Notes: generated by a model from the sequence alone, not told the origin. Counted from the first letter of the stretch, positions 3,124 to 63,814 are shown. The stretch is DNA of 64,000 bases from an uncultured Candidatus Saccharibacteria bacterium (GCA_964532425.1 CAZHIA010000006.1:1343-65342), one strand, 5' to 3'. Translations and numbers: made by a program.

Positions 3124-3260
3124 AATAGTAATCTCTAATATAACGAATATAACGAATACAGCGCAAAATATGCGAATGCTATTGGCCGCTCAATAAACCA
3201 AGGGCGGAGTGCAGTATTTGTATATTTGTGCTTGATTCGTATATTAGAGATTACTATATT
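3124..3260. repeat. Copy 1 of a MITE-like element of about 140 bp with terminal inverted repeats AATAGTAATCTCTAATAT / ATATTAGAGATTACTATAT
   Basis: Aligns at about 75 percent identity to 57072-57198. Shared core ACGAATACAGCGCAAA-TAT-CGAAT...ATTGGCCGCTCAA. Element ends about 20 nt before the recX ATG. Confidence 0.6.
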
Positions 3261-3859: not shown

Positions 3860-4567
3860 CTACAAGTAAAGAATCTCGTTGTACCGAATCAGCTTCATTT
3901 GACCGAGTGACCGGTCAAACCGGTATTCGGCCACGGAACAATTGGCCGGATTGTTCGAACCCATGCAGTCGAGCATCTGCCGTTCGCCCCAGTTCTCGAG
4001 CTCGGCCAGAATGCTGATGCGCGAACCCCAATGGTCGATGGCTAGGACCTTTTTGTTACTCCAGTTAGTTCGGAGTTTTTGCAACCATTTCGCACATCGC
4101 TTGCGGACATCGAGCAAATTTTCTTTTCCTCTCGGGGCGATAAGGACTTCTCCCAGAATGGCGTACCCAGTCTCGAATTCGGGGTAGAGTAGTCCCACCT
4201 CATGGTCCAGCAGCAGGGGGAGCATGCCCCAATCGCGCTCGTCCAATAATTCCGTGGTGAGTACCGGAATCTTGCGACGCTGGTCTTCCGGGTACGTAGA
4301 GAGAATTACCTCGAGCGTCTTTCGGTTTCTGAGGCAGGTCGATTGATAAGCGCAGTCGAACGTCCCGTACTCGGTCCTGATCTTTTCCCCGGTTTTTTTG
4401 GCCTGCAGCCAGCCTTCATCGCAGAGAGGTATGTCGCGATCAGCCATGCCAGACAGCGGTGCGCGCTTTTTTTCATCCGAAAAGAATAAACCTTCCTTAT
4501 AGAGCTGGATCAGGGATTTTCCGTGGCGTACCAGTACCAAAAGCTCCGGCCAGCCTGTAGCGGTCAT
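3860..4567 (-). CDS. Histidine phosphatase superfamily protein (phosphoglycerate mutase-like)
   Basis: N-terminal LVLVRHGKS (RHG catalytic motif). Start chosen at internal ATG 4567 preceded by AGGAGG RBS; ORF track start 4585. Confidence 0.65.
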   Translation of the reverse strand: MTATGWPELLVLVRHGKSLIQLYKEGLFFSDEKKRAPLSGMADRDIPLCDEGWLQAKKTGEKIRTEYGTFDCAYQSTCLRNRKTLEVILSTYPEDQRRKIPVLTTELLDERDWGMLPLLLDHEVGLLYPEFETGYAILGEVLIAPRGKENLLDVRKRCAKWLQKLRTNWSNKKVLAIDHWGSRISILAELENWGERQMLDCMGSNNPANCSVAEYRFDRSLGQMKLIRYNEILYL

Positions 4568-6547: not shown

Positions 6548-6641
6548 AACATTTGACCATTGACATGTGACATTTAACAGTAGGGCAGGCCCTTGGACTG
6601 CTTCCTTGTCAAATGTCAAAGGTTACATGTCAAATGTTAAA
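6548..6641. repeat. TGACATTTGACC-family hairpin element (copy R1)
   Basis: Arms AACATTTGACCATTGACATGTGACATTTAACAG and TGTCAAATGTCAAAGGTTACATGTCAAATGTTAAA are reverse complements; lies between lemA stop and htpX start. Confidence 0.65.
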
Positions 6642-7185
6642 ACTGGACTTTGACCGGTTGGCCTTCCGGACCCTTTTCGTCGATATCGAAGAACTCGCGT
6701 TTAGCGAAGCCGAAGATGGAGGCAAAAATATTTCCTGGGAATTTTTGGATGGCGGTATTGAAATCGCGGACTGTACCGTTGTAGAAGCGCCTCGAAGCCT
6801 GGATCTTGTCCTCGGTATCGGTAATGTCGCCCTGCAGTTGCATAAAGTTCTGGTTGGCCTTGAGTTCCGGATAGGCTTCGGCTACGGCAAACAAGCTCTT
6901 TAAGGCTCCGCTGAGCTGGTTCTCATCCTTAAGTTTTTCACCGAGAGAGCCGGCGCTCATGGCCGCGGCCCTGGCCTGCGTGACTTGCTCGAACACGCCG
7001 GATTCATGCTTGGCATAACCCTTGACCGTTTCGACGAGATTGGGGATGAGGTCATACCGGCGCTTTAATTGCACCTCGATATCGCTCCAAGCCTCGTCCA
7101 CGCGGTTGCGCTGCGTAATGAGCGAGTTGTAGAGCATAATCAGCACGGCTACGATCGCTAAAATAATGAGAATAGCTATCCACAT
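6637..7185 (-). CDS. lemA: LemA family protein
   Basis: 182 aa; N-terminal TM helix; conserved LemA block [35 protein letters not shown]. Confidence 0.8.
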
Positions 7186-10023: not shown

Positions 10024-10305
10024 ATGCTTACTATCGAAGAAGTCAAGAAAATAGCGGTGTTGGCCCGGATCCAGGTCACGGACGAAGAAACGGAGAAGTT
10101 TCAAAAGGAACTCTCTGCCATTTTGGATTATGTAGAGGAACTCAAAGCCGTGGATGTTGAAGGATTGGAAGAAGTCTCCCAGGTAACTGGCTTGGTCAAT
10201 GTCCAGCGCGAAGACCGTGTGGTCGAAGCAGAGAACAAGGAAGAGATTCTGTCCCAAGCTCCAGAGATCAAAGACGGGTTTTATAAAGTAAAGGCAATAC
10301 TTTAA
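10024..10305 (+). CDS. gatC: Asp-tRNA(Asn)/Glu-tRNA(Gln) amidotransferase subunit C
   Basis: 93 aa; MLTIEEVKKIAVLARIQVTDEE...LDYVEEL typical GatC; directly upstream of gatA. Confidence 0.85.
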   Translation: MLTIEEVKKIAVLARIQVTDEETEKFQKELSAILDYVEELKAVDVEGLEEVSQVTGLVNVQREDRVVEAENKEEILSQAPEIKDGFYKVKAIL

Positions 10306-10398
10306 AAGCTTTCAGCTGTCAGCTTACAGCGTATAGGTAAATCAGATTTATATTGTGAACTGGTATTCCTATAAGCTGACTGCTATAAGCTAGAAGCT
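10306..10398. repeat. AGCTTATAGGAATA-family palindromic element (copy between gatC and gatA)
   Basis: Contains GGTATTCCTATAAGCTGA identical to 55924-55940 plus AAGCTTTCAGCTGTCAGCTT local palindrome. Confidence 0.45.
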
Positions 10399-11898
10399 AT
10401 GAATAGTTATATGAATTTTGAATATCTTGAACTAACTGAATTGCGAAAGTTGCTAGATGAGAAAAAAGTTTCGTCCGTTGAGCTGACGAAATATTTTTTG
10501 GAACGCATCAAGGCCCATAATCCGGAAATGAATGCGTTCCTGACGGTGTCGGAAGAGCAGGCCCTCAAAGACGCACAGAAAGCGGATGAATTTATTGCCA
10601 GTCCGGGTGAAAACCCTGCTCTGTGCGGTATTCCGTACGCGGCCAAGGACTTGTTTTGCACCAAAGGCATCCGCACGACCGCGGCTTCCAAAATTCTGGA
10701 CAATTATATTCCGCCATACGACGCTACCTCGATCAAAAAAATCAAAGCGCAGCATGGTGTTTTGCTCGGCAAGACAAACCTGGACCAATTTGCACACGGC
10801 TCTTCAGGTGAGACCTCAGCCTATGGCCCTACCCAAAATGCCTGGGACAAGACACGCATGCCCGGCGGTTCTTCTTCCGGCTCAGCCACAGCAGTGGCTG
10901 CCGGTCTTGCTCCCTGGGCGACCGCGACGGAAACAGGCGGCAGCATCCGCCAGCCAGCCAGCTTATCTGGCATCTCCGGGTGGAAGCCGACGTATGGTCG
11001 CGTCTCCCGTTATGGCGTGATCGCCATGGGTTCATCGCTTGATTCAATCGGTGCTATGGCGTATTCGGTCAGGGACCTGGCGATGATCGCCGAGGTGATG
11101 GCCGGGCAGGATGAACGAGACGGCACGACCGGACCGGTGGAGGTACCGGAGTATTCCAAACTTTTGAATACCGACCTTTCGGGTATCCGCGTGGGTATAC
11201 CGAACGAATACTTTATTGAAGGCATGGAAGACGGGGTTAAGCAGCGCGTCGTCGAAGCAATCAAAGAACTCGAAAAACTCGGTGCTCAGCTGGTGGAAGT
11301 GAATCTGCCGAATACCAAGTACGGTTCACTCGTGTACGCGATTGTTTGTCCGAGCGAGGTGTCATCCAATTTAGCCCGTTATGACGGCATTCGTTACGGC
11401 CATGTCACCAGAGAGGCTCAGGACCTGTTGGAAGTCTATGAAAAGTCCCGCGCCGAAGGCTTCGGTAACGAAGCTAAGCGTCGCATTATGATTGGTACTT
11501 ATGTCTTGTCCGCCGGATACTATGATGCGTACTATAAGCGCGCCCAAAAAGTGCGCCGCCTGATTGTAAATGAATTTACGGAAGCTTTTAAGAATGTCGA
11601 TGTCCTGGCTTGTCCTTCCACGCCGAATGTGGCGCTGAAGCTTGGCAAGGCCGCGGAAGATCCGCTATTCGGCTACATAGCCGACCAGTTGAATATTCCT
11701 GGTTCCCTTGCCGGCCTGCCGTCGCTGTCCGTACCCTGCGGGTTTTCCCGTCCAGCCGATGGCGATACGCCGTCCATGGACGGCCTTCCGGTCGGACTGC
11801 AAATCATCGGCCCGCAATTCGGCGAACAGAAAATCTTCAACGTTGGTCATGCTTACCAGCAGGCCACCGAATGGCATAAGAAGCACCCTTCATCTTAG
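10399..11898 (+). CDS. gatA: Glutamyl-tRNA(Gln) amidotransferase subunit A (amidase)
   Basis: 499 aa; amidase signature GGSSSGSATAVA; Ser-cisSer-Lys context. Confidence 0.9.
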   Translation: MNSYMNFEYLELTELRKLLDEKKVSSVELTKYFLERIKAHNPEMNAFLTVSEEQALKDAQKADEFIASPGENPALCGIPYAAKDLFCTKGIRTTAASKILDNYIPPYDATSIKKIKAQHGVLLGKTNLDQFAHGSSGETSAYGPTQNAWDKTRMPGGSSSGSATAVAAGLAPWATATETGGSIRQPASLSGISGWKPTYGRVSRYGVIAMGSSLDSIGAMAYSVRDLAMIAEVMAGQDERDGTTGPVEVPEYSKLLNTDLSGIRVGIPNEYFIEGMEDGVKQRVVEAIKELEKLGAQLVEVNLPNTKYGSLVYAIVCPSEVSSNLARYDGIRYGHVTREAQDLLEVYEKSRAEGFGNEAKRRIMIGTYVLSAGYYDAYYKRAQKVRRLIVNEFTEAFKNVDVLACPSTPNVALKLGKAAEDPLFGYIADQLNIPGSLAGLPSLSVPCGFSRPADGDTPSMDGLPVGLQIIGPQFGEQKIFNVGHAYQQATEWHKKHPSS

Positions 11899-23322: not shown

Positions 23323-25170
23323 TTATACCTGAGCAGAAGCCTGACGGACCTTCCAACGCTGCTCCGTGAGCACGCGTTTTGATTCGTATGCCCTGCGGAT
23401 ATTGTCGATGGTCAGATCATGCTTGACCATGAGGTTGTACGCGTGCTGGAATTGGCCGGAGGTGAGCTTGATGGTGTTTCTTCTGGCTGACCGTTGATTG
23501 ACATCGTAGATCAGCCAGGTTTTTGTACTGAGTTCCCACCGCTTCTTGATCACCGGCGCCTTTTCGCCTTTGAGGTTCTCGGACTGCGTCGGGTCAGCCA
23601 CCATAGTTCGTAATACGGGAGCGAACGTACCGGCTTCATCCTTCGAACACTTTTTCAGGAGCTGTACCGTTTCGAGCAGCGAGTTGACACTGCTGCTGGC
23701 AATGAACTTGTCATTGCACGTGATGACGTATCCCGCACAGATGATCAGCTCGTAGAGTTCTTGCGCCCGTGCCTCGTCATACGACTCAGGAACGGGCAGG
23801 GGAATTTCGCTGCTTTCGTCCTCCAAATCCGCAAGCGGCGGTTGTGCTGATTGCGGACCGGAAGGCTCGGCAGCAAGAGGTGGCGTGAGCGGTTCCGGTT
23901 CCCGGAAGGTTTCAGATTCTCCGGGTTCCGATTGCGGTGCTGGTTCGGCCGGTTCGTGGGTCGGTTCGGGCTGGGGTTCTGCTTCCAAAATTTCTGGCAG
24001 CATTCCCAAATAGCGTTCCGTTGCCTGCACGACATCCGCCACATGCTCGGTCAATTGAGGTGGCGTGTAGAATAAGCGTTCGATGCTCGCGACGAGCAGT
24101 TCCAGTTCGTTGCCCAGGCGCTGGGGGCGCCAGTCTTCCGAAGCTGCGACAAGTTCGGCAAATTCATACTCATTCGTATCGATGTACTTGCCGGGCAGGA
24201 ACAGGTGAGGCGGCTTTAACACGCCGTTCTTGGCAAATTGCTGGTACCAGTCGAAGGTGCCGATCTGGGTGTGCCAATGCACCATAACCTGCTTCAGAAC
24301 GGTTGCATGCTGGTCGAGATCGTCGCGGATGTCGGTTTGGCTTTGGGTAAACAGCTGCTGAGCGTCTTTCTGCGCTTGCGCGATGGCACCCAAATGCCGC
24401 CGTGCCTCTTCCACTTGCTGTTTGAATCCCGGATCGGGCGGTGCGCCACCCAGTACGCAATACAACTCCTCGAGGAAACAGTTGTCTTTGAGTTTGAGGA
24501 ATTGGATGGCGTCGGCTACGCATTGGTTTTCCATGGTCAACATGGATTCCCAGTTCGCTTTAGCCGCTTCCGCGCGCTCTTTAAGCTCGGTGAGCTGCTG
24601 GCGCAGGGAAACGATCTCGTCGTGGGTAATGGCGATCCACTTGGCACAGTCGGCCCATGGTTTATAGATGACCAGCGCGATGCTGTCGGAATTCTCCAGC
24701 GCCTGCGTGGCGTTGTCATAGGCTACGGTCATGCCAGATGCGACTTGGTCGGTTTTGCAGAGCTTGTCGGCAATGGTGCTGATGCCACTCATGAAGCTGT
24801 ACAGTTTTTCCTTTAGCAAGGAAATTGCTTCCAGCTCATCGCTGTTCGCGATGGCCTGCAGGACCTGCTGAAGATTCAGAATGCCCATGAGCTCGGCTTT
24901 GACTAACTGGCCCGCTTCTCCGCACGTGTCGAGGATACCGTTGCACTGCTGCTCAAAATCATACAGCAGGTCAGTGAGTCCGTGAGTATCCATCGGGCGT
25001 TCGAAAAAGGTTTCTTGCCCGTTCACCCGCATGTATTTAAAGCTTTGTCCGCGGGCCGCTACGCGCTGAAACAACTGGAGCGTGCCGCGATCTAGGCGGC
25101 TGGCATCTACCTGCACATAATCGTACCCCTTCCCGTCGGGCGTGGGATACCTCAGGTAATAATTTTCCAT
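23323..25170 (-). CDS. Large hypothetical protein with acidic Pro/Glu-rich linker (island gene F)
   Basis: 615 aa; strong RBS AGGAGGGGG; low-complexity segment EPQPEPTHEPAEPAPQSEPGESETFREPEPLTPPLAAEP; no recognised domain. Confidence 0.55.
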   Translation of the reverse strand: MENYYLRYPTPDGKGYDYVQVDASRLDRGTLQLFQRVAARGQSFKYMRVNGQETFFERPMDTHGLTDLLYDFEQQCNGILDTCGEAGQLVKAELMGILNLQQVLQAIANSDELEAISLLKEKLYSFMSGISTIADKLCKTDQVASGMTVAYDNATQALENSDSIALVIYKPWADCAKWIAITHDEIVSLRQQLTELKERAEAAKANWESMLTMENQCVADAIQFLKLKDNCFLEELYCVLGGAPPDPGFKQQVEEARRHLGAIAQAQKDAQQLFTQSQTDIRDDLDQHATVLKQVMVHWHTQIGTFDWYQQFAKNGVLKPPHLFLPGKYIDTNEYEFAELVAASEDWRPQRLGNELELLVASIERLFYTPPQLTEHVADVVQATERYLGMLPEILEAEPQPEPTHEPAEPAPQSEPGESETFREPEPLTPPLAAEPSGPQSAQPPLADLEDESSEIPLPVPESYDEARAQELYELIICAGYVITCNDKFIASSSVNSLLETVQLLKKCSKDEAGTFAPVLRTMVADPTQSENLKGEKAPVIKKRWELSTKTWLIYDVNQRSARRNTIKLTSGQFQHAYNLMVKHDLTIDNIRRAYESKRVLTEQRWKVRQASAQV

Positions 25171-25214: not shown

Positions 25215-25269
25215 ATTCCCTAGAGCGGGAATATCAATAGACTATATGAGATTTTTGGCTGTTTGTCAA
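25215..25269 (-). promoter_or_regulatory. Candidate sigma70 promoter plus operator-like palindrome for gene F
   Basis: On minus strand TTGACA (25264-25269), 17-nt spacer, TATAGT (25241-25246); palindrome ATTCCC-TAGAGC-GGGAAT (25215-25232) in the 5' UTR; -35 overlaps miaA stop codon. Confidence 0.5.
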
Positions 25270-26258
25270 CACTCTTTGAGGAAGCGAAGGGCCAGCTTTT
25301 GAGCTTCGATTTTGGAGCCGACCCAGTGGATGTTTTTGTTTCGCTTAAACCAGGTCATCTGACGCTTGGCATAGTGGCAGATGGCGAGGAGGAGCTGGTC
25401 GAACATTTCATCGTACGAAAGTTTTCTTTGCAGATGCAAAGAAACGTATTTATATTCCAAGCCAAAATTTTCCAAACGCTTCCAGGAGATTCCGTGATCG
25501 TGAAGCTGTTTGATTTCTTTGACCATGCCCTGGTCAAGTCGCTCGATCAATCTTTTTTTGATGCGGGCATAGAGTTTGTCCTGGGGCCAGGTGATACCCA
25601 AATAAAGAACATTTGATCCGCCTGAGGCGGAGCTATTAACCTTCGACAGCTGAGGAACAGGTTTGCCGGTAGTGATGACAATTTCGAGAGCGCGGATGAG
25701 ACGGCGCGGGTTGTGCTGGTCGATTTCAGAAGCGCGGACCGGATCAAGCTTTTTCAGCCGATCGAATAATTGCACCGTCGTAAGGGATTCTAATTTTTTT
25801 CTTAATTTCGGATTTGGCGGAACTTCGGGAAGGATCTGTCCCATTGCCACGGCATCGACCCAGTGGCCGGTGCCGCCGCAGAGAATAGGGAGACGGCCAC
25901 GCGCAGTGATATCCTGAATGGCTTTCTCCGCGTCTTCCTTGAACAACGAAGCGGAATATTGCTTTTTGGGACTGACATAATCAATGCAGTAGTGGGGAAT
26001 ATGCTTATACACAAACATTTGACCTTTGACCTGTAACCTTTGACCCTTGCCTTTTTGCGGTATAGATCCTTCACTTCGCTCAGGATGGATGGCCGTCCAA
26101 CGGCCGTCCACTTTGCCGGTGCCGATGTCCATGCCTTTGTAAATTTGCCGGCTGTCGCAGGAAATTATTTCTCCGCAAAGTTTTTTCGCGAGAATAACCG
26201 CAAGTTCGGATTTCCCCGAAGCAGTCGGGCCAACAACGCAAATGAGAGGAATGTTCAT
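25266..26258 (-). CDS. miaA: tRNA dimethylallyltransferase MiaA with internal insertion of about 35 aa encoded by a dispersed repeat
   Basis: P-loop GPTASGKSELAVILA, DSRQIYKGMDIGTGK, IPHYCIDYV; segment QKGKGQRLQVKGQM is the in-frame translation of the repeat at 26016-26051. Confidence 0.85.
   Translation of the reverse strand: MNIPLICVVGPTASGKSELAVILAKKLCGEIISCDSRQIYKGMDIGTGKVDGRWTAIHPERSEGSIPQKGKGQRLQVKGQMFVYKHIPHYCIDYVSPKKQYSASLFKEDAEKAIQDITARGRLPILCGGTGHWVDAVAMGQILPEVPPNPKLRKKLESLTTVQLFDRLKKLDPVRASEIDQHNPRRLIRALEIVITTGKPVPQLSKVNSSASGGSNVLYLGITWPQDKLYARIKKRLIERLDQGMVKEIKQLHDHGISWKRLENFGLEYKYVSLHLQRKLSYDEMFDQLLLAICHYAKRQMTWFKRNKNIHWVGSKIEAQKLALRFLKEC
26016..26051. repeat. TGACATTTGACC-family repeat copy R2 inside the miaA coding sequence, in frame
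   Basis: CATTTGACCTTTGACCTGTAACCTTTGACCCTTGCC; reverse complement translates to GKGQRLQVKGQM within MiaA. Confidence 0.6.
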
Positions 26259-26988: not shown

Positions 26989-27135
26989 GTTTTCTTCCGG
27001 CGTGCGGCGAATTCCGCCGAACACCCGCACCGTGCATGTTCATGCGCGGGCGTTTTTTTATTTCGCGTTTTTTTGCCCGGGTCATGGTTTCATCATACAA
27101 TTTCTTTCTCATGGTGTGATATACTAAATTATGCC

Positions 27136-27221
27136 AATCCGCCAGCTGGCGGAACAGATAGTAACAAATTTACAGATAACTACAGATTAACGTATTGGGA
27201 ATCCGTAGTTATCTGTAAATT
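27136..27221. repeat. Palindromic element containing shared 24-bp core (reverse orientation) and TTTACAGATAACTAC/GTAGTTATCTGTAAA inverted repeat
   Basis: AATCCGCCAGCTGGCGGAACAGAT is the reverse complement of ATCTGTTCCGCCAGCTGGCGGATT at 43090-43113. Confidence 0.45.
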
Positions 27222-27276
27222 GGTATACATCTGTATATCTGTTAACTAAATTATACCATTAACAAAACAAACTTCC

Positions 27277-27837
27277 ATGCGCAGAAAAAGAGGCAGAAAA
27301 ATACTGATTTTTGTGCTGCTCCTGATAGTAGCGGGAGTATTTGTCTATACGTACTATAAGCATGAGGCTAAAGCCCCGGTCGTGGAGCAAGCCCGAGACA
27401 AGAACCAGCAGCTTCCCGCACAGCAGCCGGATAATCGAAATGCAACCACAACCGCCCCTGCCACCGCAACGGGAACCGCACCTTCGGCAACGACAAAGTC
27501 CAAAGAACCTGCTCCTCAGCGTGGCTATGTCTCCGGAAGTTATAGTAATGGAGAAGAGGGGTCCGACGGATCAGGCATCCAAGTTCTTGGGATGAATTTT
27601 AACGGATCGGAGTTCGCTCCCACGTCACTCAATATCAGCGTGAATGATTATATCTTTTTCAAGAACACCGGCGCGACCGGTTTTTGGCCTATCTCGCCTG
27701 ACCATCCGGGCTTCGGTCCTTCCAAAGCGGTTTCCCCTGGCAGCACGTACCGGTTCCAGTTCTCCGAAGCGGGCACCTGGAAGATTACCGAGAAAAATCA
27801 CCCGAACGCGGCGGCAACTGTAATTGTCGTCAAATAA
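27277..27837 (+). CDS. Hypothetical membrane-anchored protein with beta-rich C-terminal domain
   Basis: N-terminal TM helix ILIFVLLLIVAGVFVY; Thr/Ala/Pro-rich linker; C-terminal domain, family not recognised. Confidence 0.4.
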   Translation: MRRKRGRKILIFVLLLIVAGVFVYTYYKHEAKAPVVEQARDKNQQLPAQQPDNRNATTTAPATATGTAPSATTKSKEPAPQRGYVSGSYSNGEEGSDGSGIQVLGMNFNGSEFAPTSLNISVNDYIFFKNTGATGFWPISPDHPGFGPSKAVSPGSTYRFQFSEAGTWKITEKNHPNAAATVIVVK

Positions 27838-28902: not shown

Positions 28903-29960
28903 AACCATATACATATGCTCTGACAATTGCGGCCGTTATGTTCTTGGCCGCTTCCTGCAATCCGTTCTCAAAGCCTGCAGGCGGCGGTGTCATTAAAACC
29001 GTGAACGGCGGAGCTGATTGGCAGTTTTCGAACGCCATGAAGAACGTTAAAAATGGGTCGCTCGCAACGCTGAATGTCTCCCGGATCATGCTGGACCCTG
29101 GTAATAGAGAAACCGTGTATGTCGGGGGTTATAACGGCGGATTATACAAGTCGGAAGATTCAGGGACGACGTGGACCCGGATTCTCTCTAAGATTTTCGT
29201 CTACGACTTTGCCATCCATCCGTCCGACAGCAAGACTATCTATGCTGCGGGATTCTATGATGGGCATGGCCGCGTGCTGTATACCAAAGACGGGGGAGCA
29301 ACCTGGCAAGAAGTCTACAATGAAGCCAGCGCGGATAATCCGGTGTGGGCCCTGGCTTTGAACCCTTCTAATCCCAGCCAATTGGCCATCGGTACCGGTA
29401 CCGGCGCGATCATTACGAGTTCGGATGCTGGATTGTCATGGCGGCTATGGAAAAATTTGGAAGATCGCGTATCCCGGATCGCTTGGCAAGGACAATCAGT
29501 GTACGTGCTCGCCAAAACAAAAGGCTTGTATCAGGCCGCTGCCTTAGGAGGCGACCTGACAACCTTGACCAAGCAACTCACCGGATCACCAACGGACATT
29601 TTGTCAGATCAGTATGCCAAGTCGTTCAATCAGATGTATATTGACCCGGTGACCACCTCGCTGATGTATGTAACCACCGATCGGGGGCTTTATAAAAGCA
29701 CGGACGGCGGCAAAAACTGGAATTACCTGAAGCTGCCGGTACAGGGCGGGCAGGCGAACGCCCGCGCTATTGCCGTGTCGAAAAGCAGCAGTAACGTCGT
29801 CTTTACCAGTGTCGGCGCTACGGTATATAAATCGGTTGACGGAGGCCAGAATTTCCAGACTCAGAGCGTTGCCACGAACGGATTTATCAACTATATTTTA
29901 ATAGACCCCCAGTTGCCGCAGATCGCGTACGGCGGGATCTATGTGCAGGGACAGCAATAG
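28899..29960 (+). CDS. Lipoprotein with BNR/Asp-box repeats (Ycf48-like beta-propeller)
   Basis: Lipobox LAASC; repeated S-x-D-x-G-x-T/N-W motifs (SEDSGTTW, TKDGGATW, SSDAGLSW, STDGGKNW, SVDGGQNF); start overlaps holB stop (ATGA). Confidence 0.65.
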   Translation: MKPYTYALTIAAVMFLAASCNPFSKPAGGGVIKTVNGGADWQFSNAMKNVKNGSLATLNVSRIMLDPGNRETVYVGGYNGGLYKSEDSGTTWTRILSKIFVYDFAIHPSDSKTIYAAGFYDGHGRVLYTKDGGATWQEVYNEASADNPVWALALNPSNPSQLAIGTGTGAIITSSDAGLSWRLWKNLEDRVSRIAWQGQSVYVLAKTKGLYQAAALGGDLTTLTKQLTGSPTDILSDQYAKSFNQMYIDPVTTSLMYVTTDRGLYKSTDGGKNWNYLKLPVQGGQANARAIAVSKSSSNVVFTSVGATVYKSVDGGQNFQTQSVATNGFINYILIDPQLPQIAYGGIYVQGQQ

Positions 29961-30021
29961 TTCAAAATTCAAAGTGCAAAATTCAAAATTTTGAACTTTT
30001 CATTTTTAACTTTTAATTCTC

Positions 30022-30589: not shown

Positions 30590-30666
30590 GAACATTTGAC
30601 ACTTGACATGTGACATTTGACCAACTGCAGCCGGTTACATGTCAATGGTCAAAGGTTAATGTTGAA
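30590..30666. repeat. TGACATTTGACC-family hairpin element (copy R3)
   Basis: Arms GAACATTTGACACTTGACATGTGACATTTGACC / GTTACATGTCAATGGTCAAAGGTTAATGTTGAA; loop AACTGCAGCCG. Confidence 0.65.
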
Positions 30667-35418: not shown

Positions 35419-35492
35419 AACATTTAACATGTGACATTTGACCTTTGACATGTATCTCAGTTAAATGTCAATTGTCAAATGTCAAAGGTTGT
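35419..35492. repeat. TGACATTTGACC-family hairpin element (copy R4) inside the mreB-mreC operon
   Basis: Arms AACATTTAACATGTGACATTTGACCTTTGACATGT / TAAATGTCAATTGTCAAATGTCAAAGGTTGTT; ends 7 nt before mreC ATG. Confidence 0.65.
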
Positions 35493-35498
35493 TCTTAC

Positions 35499-36302
35499 AT
35501 GCGTTTCATTTATAGCCGTGTCTTTGGAATCTTCTTTGCCTGTCTCGTGGCCCTCGCAATATTGGTTTTTGCCGAAACCAAAGGCTGGCTGTTTCCAGTC
35601 CGCGAGGTGCTGCTGTCAGCTCCGCGCCCAGTTGCTGCTGCGGTCCGCGGCGTGGCCCGGCCGGTGAGCAATTTTTTCGCCACTATTTACCAGCTCAGGA
35701 ATATCACCCGCGAGAATGTTCAGCTTACTTCGCGCGTATCCGCGCTTGAGCAGGACCTTGTCCAGTTGGACCAGTATAAACGGGAAAACGACGCGCTCAA
35801 AGCCGAGCTTGGCTTTGCAGCCGCAGCCCGCCAATCATACCAAAGCTGCACAGTGCTGGCCTACAATCCTTTGAATCTGACCGATACGCTCCAATTAAAT
35901 TGCGGGAGCGAAGCGGGTATCCAGCAGGGGGCCGCGGTGGTCAGCCAGGGGTATCTTGTCGGGAAAGTCATGTATGTCACGCGCGGCTCCAGTACGGTGC
36001 TTTTGATCACCAGTTCCAAATTCCAGGCGGATGCGCGCGTCAGCAAGACCAATGCAGCGGGCATTATCGGCGGCTCCTTTAGTACCGGTATCATTCTGGA
36101 CCGGCTGTCGCAGAATGACGACCTGCAAAAAGGCTGGGTAGTTGTCACGGCGGGTATTAATTCCAACATTCCGAAAAACATTTTGGTAGGGCAGGTTGGG
36201 GATGTTATTTCCCACCCGAACGACCTGTTCAAAAAAGCCACCGTCTTGAGTCCTATTGACTACGAAAATATCAAGTTCGTGTTTGTGGCGAAAGGCCAAT
36301 AA
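35499..36302 (+). CDS. mreC: Rod shape-determining protein MreC
   Basis: N-terminal TM helix, coiled-coil then beta-rich domain; position after mreB; start ATG 35499 (track 35445). Confidence 0.7.
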   Translation: MRFIYSRVFGIFFACLVALAILVFAETKGWLFPVREVLLSAPRPVAAAVRGVARPVSNFFATIYQLRNITRENVQLTSRVSALEQDLVQLDQYKRENDALKAELGFAAAARQSYQSCTVLAYNPLNLTDTLQLNCGSEAGIQQGAAVVSQGYLVGKVMYVTRGSSTVLLITSSKFQADARVSKTNAAGIIGGSFSTGIILDRLSQNDDLQKGWVVVTAGINSNIPKNILVGQVGDVISHPNDLFKKATVLSPIDYENIKFVFVAKGQ

Positions 36303-36410
36303 TATAATTGACAAAATTTAAAAAATTGACATAATTGACAAAAATAAAATGCAGTCTGGTTTCCTAATTTTGTCAATTTTGTCAATTATGTCAATTTTGT
36401 CAATTAGTCT
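36303..36410. repeat. AT-rich palindromic TTGACAAAA/TTTTGTCAA element, left copy flanking mreD
   Basis: AAATTTAAAAAATTGACATAATTGACAAAA - ATAAAATGCAGTCTGGTTTCCTAATTTT - GTCAATTTTGTCAATTATGTCAATTTTGTCAATT. Confidence 0.55.
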
Positions 36411-36944
36411 ATGAAATACCTTCTCTACGCCCTCACCATCATCGTCCTCGCCGGTCTCAACATCGGTCTGTTCCCATTTATTCGTATTATGGGGGCCGCA
36501 CCGAGTTTGTTATTGGTTTTTTTGACTATCTCAGCGCTCGAGAAGGACTCCCTGGACTTTATTTTTATCGCGTTTTGTGGGGGGCTTATTGCGGATGCTT
36601 ATAGTGGTGCATACTTCGGTGCGTATACGCTGGCCTTTCTGTTGCTTTCCCTTCTGCTGTACCTGACCGTGCAGCGCTTGTTCGCCGTAAACATGAACTG
36701 GAAATACTTGGTAGTAACCATGGCCATTGTGACTATATTTGTCAATTGTGCAGTCTGGTTATACTCCGTGTTGGTCTATAAGGCAGGCTTGGCCCCGCTA
36801 GCCATAGAATGGCATCTGGTTCGCAAGCTGATACTTCCTGAATCGGCCTATAACATTTTGATGCTCTACCCCATCTACATTCTTTCCGTATTTTTGCGCA
36901 ACACCATTGCCGATCTGGCCATGAAGAAACACTACCTTAGGTAA
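36411..36944 (+). CDS. mreD: Putative rod shape-determining protein MreD (polytopic membrane protein)
   Basis: 177 aa, 5-6 TM helices, located between mreC and PBP2 gene; assignment by position and topology. Confidence 0.5.
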   Translation: MKYLLYALTIIVLAGLNIGLFPFIRIMGAAPSLLLVFLTISALEKDSLDFIFIAFCGGLIADAYSGAYFGAYTLAFLLLSLLLYLTVQRLFAVNMNWKYLVVTMAIVTIFVNCAVWLYSVLVYKAGLAPLAIEWHLVRKLILPESAYNILMLYPIYILSVFLRNTIADLAMKKHYLR

Positions 36945-36948
36945 TTGA

Positions 36949-37048
36949 GCAAAATTTAAAAAATTGACAAAATTGACAAAATTAGGAAACCAGACTGCAT
37001 TTTATTTTTGTCAATTATGTCAATTATGTCATTTTTGTCAATTCTTCT
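36949..37048. repeat. Same AT-rich palindromic element, right copy flanking mreD with inverted core
   Basis: Core AGGAAACCAGACTGCATTTTAT is the reverse complement of the core in 36303-36410 while the TTGACAAAA arms are in the same orientation. Confidence 0.55.
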
Positions 37049-38992
37049 ATGCGTAATCCCTTTGAGGTCTACACATCCGTCACCCGCGGTAAGAATCCGC
37101 GGCCGCTCGACTGGGAGGAGTCAGCCTTGGATAGCCAGAGCTATGTCGAAGGGTTTTTCGACGATGACCGCACTCCGCCAGGCCTGGCATGGCTCTGGGC
37201 AATTTTAATCGTCACGTTTCTGATTGTCGGGGGCAAGGTCTTTTACCTCCAGGTCATTAAAGGGCCTGGCTTTCGTGTGCTTTCCGATAATAACCGCATC
37301 CGCAGCCAGACGATCCTGGCGCCGCGCGGACTCATTAAGGATCGCTACGGAGATGTGTTGGCGCAAAATACCGCCAGCTTCAATCTGGTAGCTATCCCAA
37401 CCGATTTACCGAAGACCGGCTGGGAGGATGAACTGAGGACGCTGGGACAGACCTTCGGTTTTGACCCGGCTGACGCGATTAGCCGGCTCTCAAACATCGG
37501 ACGCGGTTCTTTCGAACCGGTGATCATAAAGCAAGACCTAAGCGGGGAACAGAGCATCCTATTTGAAACCAATGCTTCAAAATTTATCGGTTTTTCCGTC
37601 CAGAAGATTCCTATTCGGGAATATTTGGAGCCGCAAGTCTTTTCGCATGCGCTCGGTTATCCTGGATTGATTTCGGCCAGCGAATTGCAGCAGGTTGACC
37701 GGAAGCAGTACGATACCGCCGACTTTATCGGCAAGACCGGAATCGAAGCACAGTATGAAAAATTCCTCCATGGCACGAATGGAGAGAATTTGATCGAGGT
37801 TGATGCTACCGGCAAGCTGCTTGATGTCATTGGGGAAAATTCTCCAAAGCCCGGTAATACGCTTATTCTGAATATCGACAAAGGCTTGCAGGAGACCCTC
37901 TACAAAGGTTTTAAAGAGGGGACTAAAGGTGCGGCTGTTGCTATTGATCCGCGCAACGGGGAAGTGCTGGCATTGGTCAGCGTACCGGGATTTGATAACA
38001 ACCAGTTTGCTCATGGGATCAAACAGGACGAATATCAGTCGCTTCTTTCCGACAAATCACTGCCGCTTTTCAACCGCTCGATTTCTGGCACGTATCCTCC
38101 CGGGTCGACCGTGAAGCCGGTGGTGGCGACTGCGGCCCTGCAGGAAGGCGTGATTACTGAAAAGACGGTTGTCAATGATCGTGGCGTGCTTGTTGTGCCT
38201 AACCAGTACAATCCTTCCATTAGTTACGATTTTCATGGCTGGAAACCCGGCGGGCTCGGACCGGTCACTGTCCGTTCGGCGATCGCTTTGAGCAGTGATA
38301 TTTTCTTTTATGCAACAGCCGGCGGAGCTCCGAACACGCAGATTAAGGACGGTCTTGGCGCCCAGCGCTTGGCTGACTGGTACAAAAAGTTCAATCTTGG
38401 ACAAGCTACCGGCATTGATCTCCAGGGGGAGAAGCCGGGGGTGGTGCCTGACCCGGCATGGAAAGCAAAGGCCTTTGCCTCGGATCCCATTATGAGCAAA
38501 TGGTATTTGGGCGATACGTACCATATTGGCATCGGGCAGGGAGACTTGCTCGTGACGCCGCTGCAGGTAGCGGAATGGACCGCAGCTATTGCCAACGGCG
38601 GTACGAACTTCAAGCCGCAACTGGCCAATAAAGTCATTGATAGCAATGGTAACACCATTTGGGAGAACAAGCCCCAGGTGCTGGTGAACCGGGTAGCGGA
38701 CGATTCTGTGGTTAAGATTGTTCGGGAAGGCATGCGCGAAACGGTGTTGTCCGGTACTGCGCGTCCTTTGAATACCTTGCCTATCTCTTCAGCAGGAAAA
38801 ACCGGCACTTCCCAGTTCGACGGGGCTGATCCGAGCCGGACCCATGCTTGGTTTACCTCTTTTGCCCCGTACGAACAGCCGCACATCGTCATTACGGTGC
38901 TGGTGGAGGCCGGAGGTGAAGGCAATGAAGCAGCCGAGCCAATCGTTAAAGAAGCGCTACAGTGGTGGGCTGAGAACAGGTATGGGAAATAA
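37049..38992 (+). CDS. mrdA: Penicillin-binding protein 2 (elongasome transpeptidase)
   Basis: 647 aa; N-terminal TM; SxxK PPGSTVKP, SxD, KTG(T) SAGKTGTSQ. Confidence 0.85.
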   Translation: MRNPFEVYTSVTRGKNPRPLDWEESALDSQSYVEGFFDDDRTPPGLAWLWAILIVTFLIVGGKVFYLQVIKGPGFRVLSDNNRIRSQTILAPRGLIKDRYGDVLAQNTASFNLVAIPTDLPKTGWEDELRTLGQTFGFDPADAISRLSNIGRGSFEPVIIKQDLSGEQSILFETNASKFIGFSVQKIPIREYLEPQVFSHALGYPGLISASELQQVDRKQYDTADFIGKTGIEAQYEKFLHGTNGENLIEVDATGKLLDVIGENSPKPGNTLILNIDKGLQETLYKGFKEGTKGAAVAIDPRNGEVLALVSVPGFDNNQFAHGIKQDEYQSLLSDKSLPLFNRSISGTYPPGSTVKPVVATAALQEGVITEKTVVNDRGVLVVPNQYNPSISYDFHGWKPGGLGPVTVRSAIALSSDIFFYATAGGAPNTQIKDGLGAQRLADWYKKFNLGQATGIDLQGEKPGVVPDPAWKAKAFASDPIMSKWYLGDTYHIGIGQGDLLVTPLQVAEWTAAIANGGTNFKPQLANKVIDSNGNTIWENKPQVLVNRVADDSVVKIVREGMRETVLSGTARPLNTLPISSAGKTGTSQFDGADPSRTHAWFTSFAPYEQPHIVITVLVEAGGEGNEAAEPIVKEALQWWAENRYGK

Positions 38993-39032
38993 ATTGATGA
39001 AATACCGAAGAAATGGTATTTTAAATGCAGAC

Positions 39033-39100
39033 AGTTGACATGTGACATTTAACCTTTGACATATATGGTCACATGTTACGTGTTAAAGGTTAAATGTTTT
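39033..39100. repeat. TGACATTTGACC-family hairpin element (copy R5)
   Basis: AGTTGACATGTGACATTTAACCTTTGACAT-ATATG-GTCACATGTTACGTGTTAAAGGTTAAATGTTTT; ends 4 nt before folD ATG. Confidence 0.65.
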
Positions 39101-42245: not shown

Positions 42246-42341
42246 TATAATCCGAATGACCCAAATGCTCGCAATCCGAATGACCCGAATCGAACGGGCC
42301 CATTCGGGGTATTTGGATGCTTATTCGGAGGATTAGGATTA
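42246..42341. repeat. ATTCGG/CCGAAT-word imperfect palindrome (family P copy)
   Basis: ATAATCCGAATGACCCAAATGCTCGCAATCCGAATGACCCGAATCGAACGGG|CCCATTCGGGGTATTTGGATGCTTATTCGGAGGATTAGGATTAT. Confidence 0.5.
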
Positions 42342-42346
42342 TATCG

Positions 42347-42958: not shown

Positions 42959-43089
42959 GAGAGTTGCCGTCTTGTTTACACAACAAACGGTTTGAGATTT
43001 TATGTGATTTATCTTTGATTCATACCTCGCGCTTCTCGAGATATGAATTTTGGATAAAATATTAATCGGTTTAATTCGAATTTGTAGGT

Positions 43090-43113
43090 ATCTGTTCCGC
43101 CAGCTGGCGGATT
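43090..43113. repeat. 24-bp core ATCTGTTCCGCCAGCTGGCGGATT shared exactly with 27136-27159 (opposite orientation)
   Basis: Contains perfect palindrome CCGCCAGCTGGCGG; embedded in a rplK leader region rich in GTAGGTATCTGT/ATTCGGATTC words. Confidence 0.45.
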
Positions 43114-43140
43114 CGGATTCATCCGTAGATTTGTAAATTT

Positions 43141-44519: not shown

Positions 44520-44634
44520 TAATATTAATTCCTAATTCCCAATTCCTAATTTCCAATCAAAAACCCAAATGCAAAAATGACTTAATTTGGGCATTGGAAA
44601 TTTTATTGGGAATTAGATATTGGATATTGGAAAT
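44520..44634. repeat. TTCCAAT/ATTGGAA-word imperfect palindrome (family C)
   Basis: AATTCCTAATTCCCAATTCCTAATTTCCAAT ... CCCAAATGC-loop-GCATTTGGG ... GGAAATTTTATTGGGAATTAGATATTGGATATTGGAAATT. Confidence 0.5.
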
Positions 44635-44636
44635 TT

Positions 44637-44975
44637 ATGTCTTTAAAAAAAGCTTATCTCTACCTTGTCTCCGTCATCTCCCTCGTCATTATGGTGGTCG
44701 GCGCTATTCAGTTGCTCGATATGGCCCTTAAGACCTGGGTCTTCACCAAAGCGGATCAGGATTATTATTCCGCACCGTGCATGTCTGCCAAACCGGTTTC
44801 AGCCACCGGCACGCCGGTTGAATGCACTCCGGAAGAACGAGCTGCTCAAAAGCAACAGCAGGCTGACATGCGTACTGCCCAAAAACAGCGTCAGGCTTCC
44901 ACAGCCATTGCTATGATCATTGTGGCTACCCCAGTCTGGTTCTTCCACTGGAGGCTGGCCCGAAGGGAAGCGTAA
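44637..44975 (+). CDS. Small hypothetical membrane protein
   Basis: 112 aa; TM helices at both ends (LYLVSVISLVIMVVGAI; AIAMIIVATPVWFFHW). Confidence 0.4.
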   Translation: MSLKKAYLYLVSVISLVIMVVGAIQLLDMALKTWVFTKADQDYYSAPCMSAKPVSATGTPVECTPEERAAQKQQQADMRTAQKQRQASTAIAMIIVATPVWFFHWRLARREA

Positions 44976-47550: not shown

Positions 47551-48102
47551 ATGAATAACCATATTCTCGCCGTTGTTGGCTTGCCGGGTGCAGGCAAGAC
47601 TGAAGCAACTAATTATATAATTGAAAAAACCGGTTGGTCAAAGGTGTATTTTGCCCAGCCGACATTTGACGTATTGGCGGAACGAGGCAAGGAAATCAAT
47701 GAAGCTAATGAGCGGGCTGTACGGGAGGAATTGCGAGCCACACATGGCATGGGTGCCATGGCCATTTTGAGCATTCCCAAAGTCAAGGAGCTGTTTCAAA
47801 ATTCTAGCGTGATCATTGAAAGCTTATATAGTTGGGAGGAATATCTGGCAGTCAAACAGGAGTTCGGCGACGCATTCAAGGTGCTGGCAATCTTCGCTTC
47901 ACCTCAGATTCGGACAGAACGCATGGGAAAGCGCCCGGTCAGACCGCTCACGCCTGAGCAGCTTATCTCCCGGGATTATTCCCAAATCGAAAATCTCCAT
48001 CAGGCTGGACCAATCGCCCGTGCCGATTGGACGGTTATCAACGAAGGGACAGTAGGGGAGATGAAAGGGAAGATTGATGAAATATTGGCGCAACTTAAAT
48101 AA
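47551..48102 (+). CDS. P-loop nucleoside/nucleotide monophosphate kinase-like protein
   Basis: Walker A VVGLPGAGKTE (adenylate/cytidylate kinase-like); shares C-terminal block N-GTV-E-GKIDEIL with 48733-49272; substrate unknown. Confidence 0.5.
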   Translation: MNNHILAVVGLPGAGKTEATNYIIEKTGWSKVYFAQPTFDVLAERGKEINEANERAVREELRATHGMGAMAILSIPKVKELFQNSSVIIESLYSWEEYLAVKQEFGDAFKVLAIFASPQIRTERMGKRPVRPLTPEQLISRDYSQIENLHQAGPIARADWTVINEGTVGEMKGKIDEILAQLK

Positions 48103-48215
48103 TTTCAAATTACAAATATCAAATTTCAAATCAAACTTTAATGCTTTAATAATAAATTATTATTTTAGTCATTGGTCATTGATTTGACATTTGAAATTAG
48201 AAATTGGAAATTTAA
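48103..48215. repeat. AT-rich palindrome of TTTCAAAT/ATTTGAAA words (divergent family C)
   Basis: TTTCAAATTACAAATATCAAATTTCAAATCAAA ... TGACATTTGAAATTAGAAATTGGAAATTT. Confidence 0.35.
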
Positions 48216-48264
48216 AGACTAAATATCTAGTTCAAATTAACCTCGATTAGCCTTAAGATCGCTT

Positions 48265-48705
48265 ATGAAAGTAAAGATCAAACGTTTAGATCCTTCTATT
48301 CCTCTCCCTGAATATCACACCACCGAATCCGCCGGTTTTGATATTGGTTCGGCGATTGATGTTGTTATCCAGCCGGGACAGGTGTTCAAGATCCCAACCG
48401 GACTAGTTTTTGCTTCGCCTAAAGGTTACTTTTTAATGATCTCCTCCCGCAGTAGTCTCGCGCTCAAGAAAGGCCTTGTCATGGCCAACGGCATTGGCGT
48501 CGTAGACCCCGACTATGCGGGCCCGAATGACCAAGTGCACATTATTGTTCATAACATTACCACAGAACCGGTTGAGGTAAAAAAAGGCGAGCGTTTAGCT
48601 CAAGGTATCTTTTTGCCTATCGAGCAGGCTGAGTGGGAAGAGACGGACCAAATGCGGGAGACTGATAGGGGAGGGATAGGGTCGACGGGGGGATATAATA
48701 ATTAA
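48265..48705 (+). CDS. dut: dUTP diphosphatase
   Basis: 146 aa; dUTPase motifs GFDIGS, SSRSSLALKKG, GVVDPDYAGP. Confidence 0.85.
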   Translation: MKVKIKRLDPSIPLPEYHTTESAGFDIGSAIDVVIQPGQVFKIPTGLVFASPKGYFLMISSRSSLALKKGLVMANGIGVVDPDYAGPNDQVHIIVHNITTEPVEVKKGERLAQGIFLPIEQAEWEETDQMRETDRGGIGSTGGYNN

Positions 48706-48735
48706 TTCCCAATTCCTAATTTCCAATTTCCAATG
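48704..48735. repeat. Half-copy of family C element
   Basis: TTAATTCCCAATTCCTAATTTCCAATTTCCAATG matches left arm of 44520-44634. Confidence 0.4.
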
Positions 48736-49272
48736 ATTATAGGATTAGTGGGGGAAAAATTAGCAGGGAAGGATGTGGTGGCGGAGTACTTGGAAAAAAA
48801 GTATGGGGCTTTTTATATTAAGTACAGCACAATCTTGGATGAGATTTTAAATATTCTCGATCTTCCCGTGAGCCGCCGCAATGAAATAGATTTGGGTGCG
48901 GGTCTGCGCGAGGCGTTTAAACGCAGTGTGCTCTGGGGAGCGGTGAAAAAGAAGGTACTTGAGTCGTCCGCTGATTTGAAAGTTATCGGTAGCATAAGGC
49001 TTGAGGACGAGTTCGAAAGCGCGCGAAGCCTGGGGGCGAAGGTTTTGTATGTGACCGCGCCGATCGATTTGCGCTATCAGCGCGCCTTGGTACGCCGCGA
49101 AAAAACCGATGACGGCCAACAGACGTTTGAACAGTTTATTGCCCAGGAACAGGAATGGACCGAAGCTGGAATTCCTGAGCTCGGCAAAAAGGCGGACTTT
49201 CGGATAGAGAATGTTGGGACGGTGGAGGAGTTGTATGGGAAGATTGATGAGATACTATCAACCGTAGCCTAA
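48733..49272 (+). CDS. P-loop kinase-like protein, paralogue of 47551-48102 with degenerate Walker A
   Basis: GLVGEKLAGKD; shared C-terminal NVGTVEELYGKIDEIL block. Confidence 0.45.
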   Translation: MIIGLVGEKLAGKDVVAEYLEKKYGAFYIKYSTILDEILNILDLPVSRRNEIDLGAGLREAFKRSVLWGAVKKKVLESSADLKVIGSIRLEDEFESARSLGAKVLYVTAPIDLRYQRALVRREKTDDGQQTFEQFIAQEQEWTEAGIPELGKKADFRIENVGTVEELYGKIDEILSTVA

Positions 49273-49354
49273 GTGACAGACATTTGACCTGTGACATTTG
49301 ACATTTGACCAATTGCAGACGGTCAAAGGTCAAATGTTAAATGTTAAATGTTTT
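49273..49354. repeat. TGACATTTGACC-family hairpin element (copy R6)
   Basis: GTGACAGACATTTGACCTGTGACATTTGACATTTGACC-AATTGCAGAC-GGTCAAAGGTCAAATGTTAAATGTTAAATGTTTT; loop resembles R3 loop. Confidence 0.65.
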
Positions 49355-55866: not shown

Positions 55867-55955
55867 CTAGCTTATAGCTGTCAGCTGATAGCTTATAGGA
55901 ATATTGAGTATTAGAAATTCATGGTATTCCTATAAGCTGAAAGCTATAACCTGAA
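55867..55955. repeat. AGCTTATAGGAATA / TATTCCTATAAGCT palindromic element (family D) between ftsE and ftsX
   Basis: AGCTTATAGGAATAT (55890-55904) and TATTCCTATAAGCT (55925-55938) are reverse complements; flanking AGCTGTCAGCTGATAGCT and AAGCTGAAAGCT words. Confidence 0.5.
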
Positions 55956-55965
55956 AGCTGAAAAC

Positions 55966-56883: not shown

Positions 56884-56968
56884 CTAGTTGCCAGCTTATA
56901 GGAACACCAGTTTTGAGTTCCAACACGGCTTCTCCTGTAAGCTAAAAGCTGACAGCTACAAGCTTTTT
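56884..56968. repeat. Family D-like element after ftsX
   Basis: CCAGCTTATAGGAACACC ... CTCCTGTAAGCTAAAAGCTGACAGCTACAAGCTTTTT. Confidence 0.4.
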
Positions 56969-57071
56969 ATCTCTTGCGTGATTTTTAAAATCGTATATAC
57001 TGAAAAAGAGCCACTTTGAGGCAATCCTGAAAGCGGCAGCCAAGGACTCTCGCAGGGGAGTTTTTTTGTTG

Positions 57072-61831: not shown

Positions 61832-61838
61832 ACAATTA

Positions 61839-63806: not shown

Positions 63807-63814
63807 TGTGATAT

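Follow-up and report, generated by a model that had tools for sequence, protein, structure and literature searches.

The miaA gene (tRNA dimethylallyltransferase) of an uncultured Candidatus Saccharibacteria bacterium, carried on a 64,000-nucleotide stretch of DNA (GCA_964532425.1 CAZHIA010000006.1:1343-65342; hereafter the window, from whose first letter positions are counted), contains within its reading frame one arm of a hairpin repeat that is dispersed in the host genome. This segment is probably a repeat-derived, in-frame piece that was captured from the genome's own hairpin repeats at the tolerant tip of a loop in the MiaA protein. The initial annotation of this DNA drew attention to a 36-mer, CATTTGACCTTTGACCTGTAACCTTTGACCCTTGCC, and described it as a dispersed repeat inserted in frame in miaA and reminiscent of the Rickettsia palindromic elements (RPEs). 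The 36-mer is placed exactly at 26016-26051 on the plus strand, within the miaA open reading frame (ORF). As had been stated, it codes in frame, the coding strand giving GKGQRLQVKGQM (residues G70-M81), and the reading frame is preserved, with the 330-aa ORF intact and all invariant residues kept. The term dispersed repeat is accurate at the level of the family, of which the segment represents one arm of four 7-nt units, but not for the exact string, which is found only once in the window even when 3 mismatches are tolerated. The interpretation first offered is thus partly supported and largely right, with corrections that concern the anatomy of the loop and the comparison with RPEs.

The repeat family comprises five complete intergenic palindromes in the window, each arm of which is made up of 4-5 tandem 7-nt units (TTGACNN in one arm, NNGTCAA in the other; Table 1). 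The complete elements measure 68-91 nt and all five lie between co-directional ORFs. Their predicted folding is consistently stronger than that of shuffled sequences (z -3.3 to -7.0; 0/200 shuffles fold as well). Runs of at least four [TG]T[GA]AC motifs at 7-nt spacing number 11 in the window as against 0 in 200 Markov simulations; ten of these runs make up the five intergenic hairpins, and the eleventh is the miaA segment. On the coding strand the miaA arm consists of the units GGTCAAA, GGTTACA, GGTCAAA and GGTCAAA followed by TGTTT, and it aligns in register with all 10 intergenic arms, including the terminal outer unit AACATTTGAC. Its mean identity to the 10 arms is 0.71, the range within the family being 0.60-0.74. 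The best pair is formed with 6610-6641, to which the miaA arm is 84% complementary over 32 nt, and 19 of 20 positions are identical in the comparison with another copy, for which shuffles reach at most 17. Two units of the miaA arm, the first (AACATTTGAC) and the irregular GGTTACA, recur in particular intergenic arms.

The two orientations of an arm differ sharply in coding potential. In the TTGAC orientation none of the three frames is open in any of the 11 arms, each being closed by TGA or TAA, whereas the GTCAA orientation leaves 1-3 frames open per arm, and all three in the miaA arm. Because the TTGAC arm has stops in all three frames, miaA carries a single arm and carries it in the GTCAA orientation; a complete palindrome, containing both orientations, is consequently never read through, and an essential ORF can retain no more than one arm, with GTCAA in sense. 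GTCAAAR arrays found in the corresponding miaA loops of two other loci (L081 and L005; L numbers denote retrieved DNA loci and P numbers orthologue proteins) have the same orientation as the window arm. Beside one intergenic element, the gene upstream (ORF 6637..7185, minus strand) ends at the first TAA in the hairpin terminus (6629-6643, read as TTTTAACATTTGAC on the minus strand), which fits with elements that stop translation in all frames in the TTGAC orientation.

The gene that houses the segment belongs to a Patescibacteria (candidate phyla radiation, CPR) bacterium and, judging from its sequence and predicted fold, looks like a functional miaA. The 330-aa ORF matches the Pfam family IPPT (PF01715) at 1.5e-62 and the PDB MiaA chains 2qgn/3exa at 5e-53 (phmmer), and Foldseek places the modelled protein with 3exa, 3foz, and 2zm5 at probability 1.00. 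The P-loop GPTxxGK(S/T) is present as GPTASGKS and the DSxQ(I/V)Y motif as CDSRQIY, and every column that is invariant across 44 orthologues is kept. The nearest relatives sampled were the 120 closest MiaA proteins, which are 52-62% identical to the window protein; all source-named members of this set are Patescibacteria or Doudnabacteria, and the genome loci retrieved with miaA are likewise mostly Patescibacteria. A contig scan for relatives gave, among the matches listed, mostly distant clades at no more than 49% identity, and yielded the canonical spacer described below together with L005.

The segment lies in the first of the variable loops of MiaA (loop 1). The alignment to Bacillus halodurans MiaA splits at this point (query 4-51 to chain 4-51, query 87-314 to chain 58-288), and 35 residues of the window protein replace 6 of the Bacillus protein. 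The boundaries of the insertion of about 35 residues reported in the initial annotation are therefore right with respect to canonical MiaA, but the insertion is composite. The pattern GK-VxGxW...FxYK-(I/V)PHH occurs in 120/120 of the closest orthologues, with a total loop length of 14-52 aa, and since VxGxW...FxYK is universal among them, about 14 of the 35 residues constitute a clade-wide beta-hairpin. The heptamer family accounts for only G72-F82, or about 11 residues. Nor are the flanking blocks normally contiguous, as had been supposed: canonical Patescibacteria MiaA, including most of the other Patescibacteria loci retrieved, has an 8-residue spacer (ITKKEMxG), and the minimum in the window's own clade is 14 residues (e.g., VEGKWVKNKFVYKY). 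The tip of the window loop exceeds the minimal hairpin by 23 aa and the nearest short-loop group (VEGAWKKIRGRKIYVYKG) by 19 aa. In the AlphaFold2 model (mean predicted local distance difference test [pLDDT] 83.7, predicted template modelling score 0.80), strands are placed at residues 52-56 and 80-84 and pLDDT falls below 50 for residues 61-77. The insert is thus modelled, at low confidence, as the tip of a protruding surface beta-hairpin, a surface position that the initial annotation had raised, and the tip is probably disordered. Within the tip, the spacer I66-K71 has no match elsewhere in the window and may contain one degenerate heptamer unit, GGCAAGG.

Loop 1 is hypervariable among the orthologues, 84/120 of which have more than 5 extra loop residues, and their comparison supports the view that it is dispensable and a recurrent acceptor of repeat-like DNA. 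Arrays of period 7 stand just before FxYK in 6/11 of the orthologue DNAs read, with units that differ from one locus to another (Table 1). The loop of L082 holds instead a palindrome, TCCGCCAGCTGGCGGA, which is also found twice in the intergenic DNA of the window. The clearest independent replicate of the match between repeat and loop is provided by L005 (Candidatus Parcubacteria bacterium SURF_57), whose MiaA is 47% identical to that of the window. A hairpin at 4069-4180 of the L005 contig, located between two co-directional ORFs 6 kb from miaA, has an arm that shares 86% identity over 49 nt with the miaA loop (10185-10233), and the match spans non-periodic stretches. The protein alignment reveals three hypervariable sites in all (reference residues 57-77, 206-211, and 254). 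In some orthologues the second and third hold, among the protein sequences, VILSASEGS...LGLRMT, PPFKGGVRGGY, or PLARGDVSSASERQRG, or heptamer arrays, and a single heptamer family occupies two loops of the same miaA in L084 and likewise in L209. A heptamer-like stretch in the RF1 gene of L081 (6807-6832) was also considered as an insertion and rejected, being ordinary helical sequence.

Table 1. Coordinates of the miaA features, the hairpin family, and related loci. Positions refer to the window unless a locus is named.
Feature	Position or locus	Strand	Basis or folding
miaA (tRNA dimethylallyltransferase), 330 aa, intact ORF	25266..26258	-	ORF list, Pfam, phmmer, Foldseek
Loop 1, V50-H86, between MDIGTGK and IPHYCID; beta-hairpin VDGRW ... 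FVYKH with hypervariable tip	26001..26111	-	orthologue alignment, AlphaFold2
Variable tip T55-M81, 27 aa	26016..26096	-	orthologue alignment, neighbour-joining (NJ) tree order, pLDDT
Module 1, CATCCTGAGCGAAGTGAAGGATCT, codes HPERSEGS (H58-S65); short palindrome, ATCCT..AGGAT stem	26064..26087	-	metagenome matches, orthologue DNA
Spacer I66-K71, ATACCGCAAAAAGGCAAG, between modules 1 and 2	26046..26063	-	direct sequence reading
Module 2, single arm of heptamer-array hairpin family, codes G72-F82	26013..26045	-	in-register alignment, complementarity
Complete hairpin element, intergenic, between two minus-strand genes	6548..6638	.	RNA fold -34 kcal/mol, z = -4.3
Complete hairpin element, intergenic	30591..30663	.	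z = -3.3
Complete hairpin element, intergenic	35419..35493	.	z = -4.6
Complete hairpin element, intergenic	39031..39098	.	z = -5.6
Complete hairpin element, intergenic	49280..49352	.	z = -7.0
Loop heptamer units	window GGTCAAA; L081 GTCAAAA/GTCAGGT; L005 GTCAAAA; L084 AATCCGN; L085 ATCYTAN; L209 AATCTAA		
Further MiaA hot-spots	L081 10585-10625; L084 1069-1106; L085 2634-2674 and 2789-2820		
Insert-bearing orthologue proteins, site 2 (residues 206-211)	P0025, P0063, P0067, P0072, P0080, P0095		
Insert-bearing orthologue proteins, site 3 (residue 254)	P0010, P0060, P0083, P0088, P0094 and others		
Widespread-motif metagenome loci	L088-L207, e.g. L089 3374-3444, L136 4047-4108, L091 419-472		

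The tip also contains a second piece, module 1, which encodes HPERSEGS and is present in one copy in the window. A near-identical 21-mer, ATCCTGAGCGAAGNGAAGGAT, occurs in at least 120 metagenome contigs that range in GC content from 0.38 to 0.73, and the extended consensus of this widespread motif is GTCATCCTGAGCGAAGCGAAGGATCTC. Copies often form inverted pairs about 10-60 nt apart and in one case a tandem array of 33-nt period. They are usually preceded by (T/C)GTC, whereas the window copy is preceded by ATCC and has no GTC flank. VILSASEGS...LGLRMT, mentioned above, is the translation expected from an inverted pair of the motif, as read from protein only. The core of the motif, GCGAAGC, has been reported as an unusually stable DNA mini-hairpin; in the window copy the core reads GCGAAGT. 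Rfam yielded no family for the motif across 15 metagenome loci, and no paper in the literature searched contains the motif string. It could be a repetitive extragenic palindromic (REP)-like sequence, a terminator, or a single-stranded DNA hairpin. Module 1 nucleotides recur at the same site of the miaA loop in L084, L085, L086, L208, L209, and L210. The sister orthologue P0002 also carries HPERSEGS, as two tandem modules, for which reason this is probably the older of the two pieces; after it P0002 continues with AATCCGN units where the window has GGTCAAA units. Elsewhere, intergenic DNA of a Candidatus Wolfebacteria contig (L001 430-500) carries two copies of the motif as an inverted pair (GTCATCCTGAACGCAGTGAAGGATC...GATTCTTCGCTATGCTCAGAATGAC), about 250 nt upstream of a miaA match at 747-1745.

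Capture of resident repeat DNA would account for these features as follows. In the clade of this bacterium, the short spacer between MDIGTGK and (I/V)PHHxID would have become a protruding beta-hairpin (VxGxW...FxYK), the tip of which would tolerate almost any sequence and would repeatedly have taken up DNA resembling resident short hairpin repeats. The window tip would accordingly hold two such pieces, a 24-nt copy of the widespread palindromic motif and one 33-nt arm of the heptamer family. We infer that the latter arrived by copying from a repeat, and the donor would be a genomic element from which the arm was obtained by insertion or transposition of the whole element and subsequent loss of the stop-bearing arm, by template switching, or by gene conversion. 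A copy within the gene with both arms intact would give a truncated protein, and selection would be expected to remove it. The peptide most likely lengthens a surface loop of this RNA-binding enzyme neutrally or to slight advantage, and the segment most likely has no function as nucleic acid.

Several observations weigh against this account. No relative more than 62% identical was found in the databases searched, and as a result the alignment that documents the variability of the loop (14-52 aa, n = 120) does not give exact insertion boundaries, and neither an empty-site allele nor a target-site duplication is demonstrable. Flanking the miaA arm and the five complete copies, no target-site duplications are evident by eye. 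In seven other loci (L081, L082, L085, L086, L087, L208, and L210; up to 10 kb on each side of miaA), the loop DNA has no dispersed match above shuffled levels. For module 1, 1.43 Mb of mostly Patescibacteria loci contain five copies, 4/5 of them in miaA loops, so that HPER..EGS is not established as a dispersed repeat within these genomes. Lastly, heptameric simple repeats are over-represented in bacteria, where they typically have about 4 units, sometimes form inverted stem-loops, and are ascribed to polymerase slippage (PMC4692102).

This last point makes pure local slippage a real alternative, in which the 7-nt units of a low-complexity loop expand and contract in place and the likeness to the intergenic arrays reflects a shared mutational bias. 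Such a process would agree with the different unit types found at the same place among orthologues, and with the presence of only a single arm and no visible target-site duplication. The matches, however, are position-specific and extend to irregular units, AACATTTGAC and GGTTACA being shared with particular intergenic arms in the 84% pairing, and the L005 match takes in sequence that is not periodic at all. Only two adjacent units are identical in the window copy, which makes it a poor substrate for slippage. On this evidence slippage in place is unlikely, and capture from resident hairpins is preferred.

It is also conceivable that loop 1 is an ancestral functional element, in which HPER..EGS and the basic segments were selected for binding of tRNA or a partner and the likeness to repeats is incidental. 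The enzyme binds RNA, the loop tip is basic in nearly all orthologues (as is the peptide encoded in the window, IPQKGKGQRLQVKGQM), and HPER(x0-12)EGS-like modules are present at the same position in 28/120 orthologues. Their distribution on the NJ tree is nevertheless nearly that of chance (22 Fitch changes, where shuffled labels give 25.5, on a tree that is weakly resolved), the loop is hypervariable in both length and sequence, and its tip is modelled at low confidence. Conservation of the module is moreover seen at the nucleotide level, synonymous sites included: seven orthologue copies share CAT CCT GAG ... GAA GGA TCT with hardly any change, while the third positions of invariant 4-fold codons in the same genes agree at only 30%. 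This difference points to nucleotide-level constraint or copying and not to conservation of the protein, and the motif is a palindrome in unrelated organisms. Selection for an ancestral binding function is therefore very improbable as the origin of the loop.

Marginally less credible still is a role for the segment as DNA or RNA, whether as an mRNA hairpin or attenuator, as an internal or antisense promoter built on the TTGAC boxes, or as a 7-nt phase-variation switch. Complete members of the family are strong hairpins, the repeated TTGACC hexamers on the antisense strand resemble a -35 box, and a change in the number of 7-nt units would shift the frame; yet the miaA region folds no better than shuffles (z = -0.02 and +0.37) and there is no partner arm nearby. 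An antisense or internal promoter was rejected, as the insert contains no pair of sigma-70-like hexamers 16-18 nt apart, and phase variation was considered and not retained, since no more than two neighbouring units are identical. A chimera or collapse caused by repeats in this metagenome-assembled genome of an uncultivated organism, repeats being frequent causes of mis-joins, is highly unlikely, given that miaA continues in one frame on either side of the insert, with none of the invariant residues missing, and that comparable inserts occur in independent assemblies (NCBI, JGI, ENA, Logan).

A broader proposition, advanced tentatively and more open to doubt than capture in the present gene, is that core enzymes of a large Patescibacteria clade have surface loops, three of them in MiaA, that are recurrent sinks for genome-specific palindromes of 7-nt arrays and for a near-universal palindrome of 21-25 nt, GTCATCCTGAGCGAAGCGAAGGATC, of which no description was found in Rfam or the literature searched. 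If so, CPR proteins would be undergoing remodelling by active copying at the DNA level, through template switching or the capture of single-stranded hairpins, and whether a half-element persists in genes would depend on the stop codons in its arm. Streamlined CPR genomes are considered to have little spare DNA, and the case of miaA extends in-frame colonization by repeats to them. Such colonization of genes by selfish repeats is familiar chiefly from Rickettsia and from a small number of other bacteria. The literature searched held no paper on repeats of this kind in Patescibacteria, which is an absence of matches and not proof of novelty. The case further suggests a simple rule of capture, under which only arms without stop codons are retained and which is testable genome-wide; it identifies a natural permissive site in MiaA; and it flags a very widespread short palindrome whose biology is apparently unexplored. 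For annotation, it would account for some of the differences in length among CPR orthologues and for some of their unusual low-complexity peptides.

Further observations concern the remainder of miaA and its surroundings. In the second variable linker of the window protein (residues ~209-214, SSASGGS) there is a GC-rich palindrome, TCCGCCTGAGGCGGA, at 25617-25631; the sequence that directly follows it on the coding strand, TCAAATGTT, is similar to a heptamer-element terminus. The window contains 4 instances of the pattern TCCGCC-N3-4-GGCGGA, for which 0.02 would be expected, the other copies (27138, 32283, and 43096) all being intergenic. As a length insertion the palindrome at 25617-25631 was rejected, there being none relative to Bacillus halodurans MiaA. 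The miaA neighborhood is partly conserved in the clade (window 27277-27837, plus strand, and 23323-25170, minus strand; loci L081, L082, L208, and L210). A divergently oriented gene of about 175-188 aa adjoins miaA, with a Pfam match to Cupredoxin_1 that is strong in L081 and weak or faint in L082, L208, and L210, and a protein of about 600 aa without a Pfam match is encoded downstream of miaA in L081 and likewise in the window. No known RNA families or tRNAs were detected in the 64-kb window.

The heptamer hairpins are one of several repeat families in the window. Other intergenic hairpins or inverted arrays of short tandem units were observed at 36299-36405 and 36950-37050; at 42246-42343, 61837-61935, and 63711-63807; at 10281-10399, 55868-55959, and 56913-56990; at 44521-44637, 48100-48217, and 48696-48741; at 29957-30020; and at 27131-27234 and 43079-43118. 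Their unit families include AATTGACAA 9-mers, which flank the ORF 36411-36944, AATCCGAAT-type units, TAAGCTG, and AATTCCN, and in some of the window arrays ACAGATA units surround the TCCGCCAGCTGGCGGA core. A direct repeat of 79 nt with 78% identity (3181-3259 and 57120-57198) is situated in each case just upstream of a plus-strand ORF (3281.. and 57199..), and a CGAATA..ACGAATACAGCGCAAA stretch precedes both copies (3135-3167 and 57083-57106). This repeat may represent a shared promoter or leader region.

Comparison with known systems places the miaA insert near several classes of bacterial repeats. Copies of REP sequences, RPEs, and miniature inverted-repeat transposable elements (MITEs) are found in frame inside genes, including those for tRNA modification, and have been proposed to be neutral in loops (PMC3184786; PMC3733652). 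Xanthomonas and Nostoc possess heptameric arrays, typically of four units and sometimes in the form of inverted stem-loops (Rehm et al., 2015, PMC4692102), and short tandemly repeated repetitive (STRR) arrays are present at a tolerant position inside the cyanobacterial RNase P RNA gene (Vioque, 1997, cited in PMC2858038). The window family resembles these simple sequence repeats (SSRs) and STRRs in its tandem, heterogeneous 7-nt units, about 4 per array, in their intergenic enrichment and occasional inversion, and in the presence of arrays inside a functional gene. It differs in its unit (TTGACNN as compared with GGGAATC or GGGGAYT and the STRR units), in its host, the others belonging to other phyla, and in forming regular two-armed palindromes of which one arm is translated within a protein. 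In miaA only two adjacent units are identical.

MITEs fused to ORFs (e.g., Nezha, Correia, RUP, and BOX; PMC3184786) are likewise small, non-autonomous repeats with long stem-loops, which may be fused to reading frames or lie within them. The elements described here are much shorter, and inspection of the five copies and the miaA arm identified neither terminal inverted repeats distinct from the body nor target-site duplications; no cognate transposase was identified either. In-gene REPs (GTAG- or CGTC-tagged; Di Nocera et al., 2013, PMC3733652) are short in-frame palindromes that occur in tRNA-related enzymes, among others, where their position in flexible loops has been suggested to make them neutral. 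REPs are imperfect palindromes of 20-40 nt that end in a conserved tetranucleotide tag, are abundant in their genomes, and in the GTAG class are associated with a RAYT transposase. The HPERSEGS module is a 21-nt palindrome whose metagenome copies are mostly preceded by TGTC or CGTC. The window copy is without this flank and single in 64 kb, and the widespread motif spans contigs of GC 0.38-0.73 whereas classical REP families are genome-specific. The heptamer family, for its part, is AT-rich, 68-91 nt in length, and untagged.

The likeness to RPEs proposed in the initial annotation is apt as a functional analogy. RPEs (Ogata et al., 2000, as cited in PMC3184786 and PMC3733652) are also a dispersed hairpin family found both between genes and in frame within housekeeping genes, with preservation of the ORF and an extra peptide on a predicted surface loop, the surface location being in the present case by prediction only; RPE-1 interrupts the tRNA-modification gene truB (PMC3733652). 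Multiple copies in both settings are found here as well, with five intergenic copies and the miaA arm in 64 kb as opposed to 0 by chance. Membership of the RPE family is another matter. RPEs measure about 105-146 nt and are read through whole, whereas the elements in this Patescibacteria host measure 68-91 nt, their arms are AT-rich 7-nt tandem arrays, and a single 33-nt arm is all that is read through in miaA. The miaA insert thus works like an RPE or an in-gene REP while probably standing outside those families, and it is set apart from RPEs by its architecture, its size, and its host.

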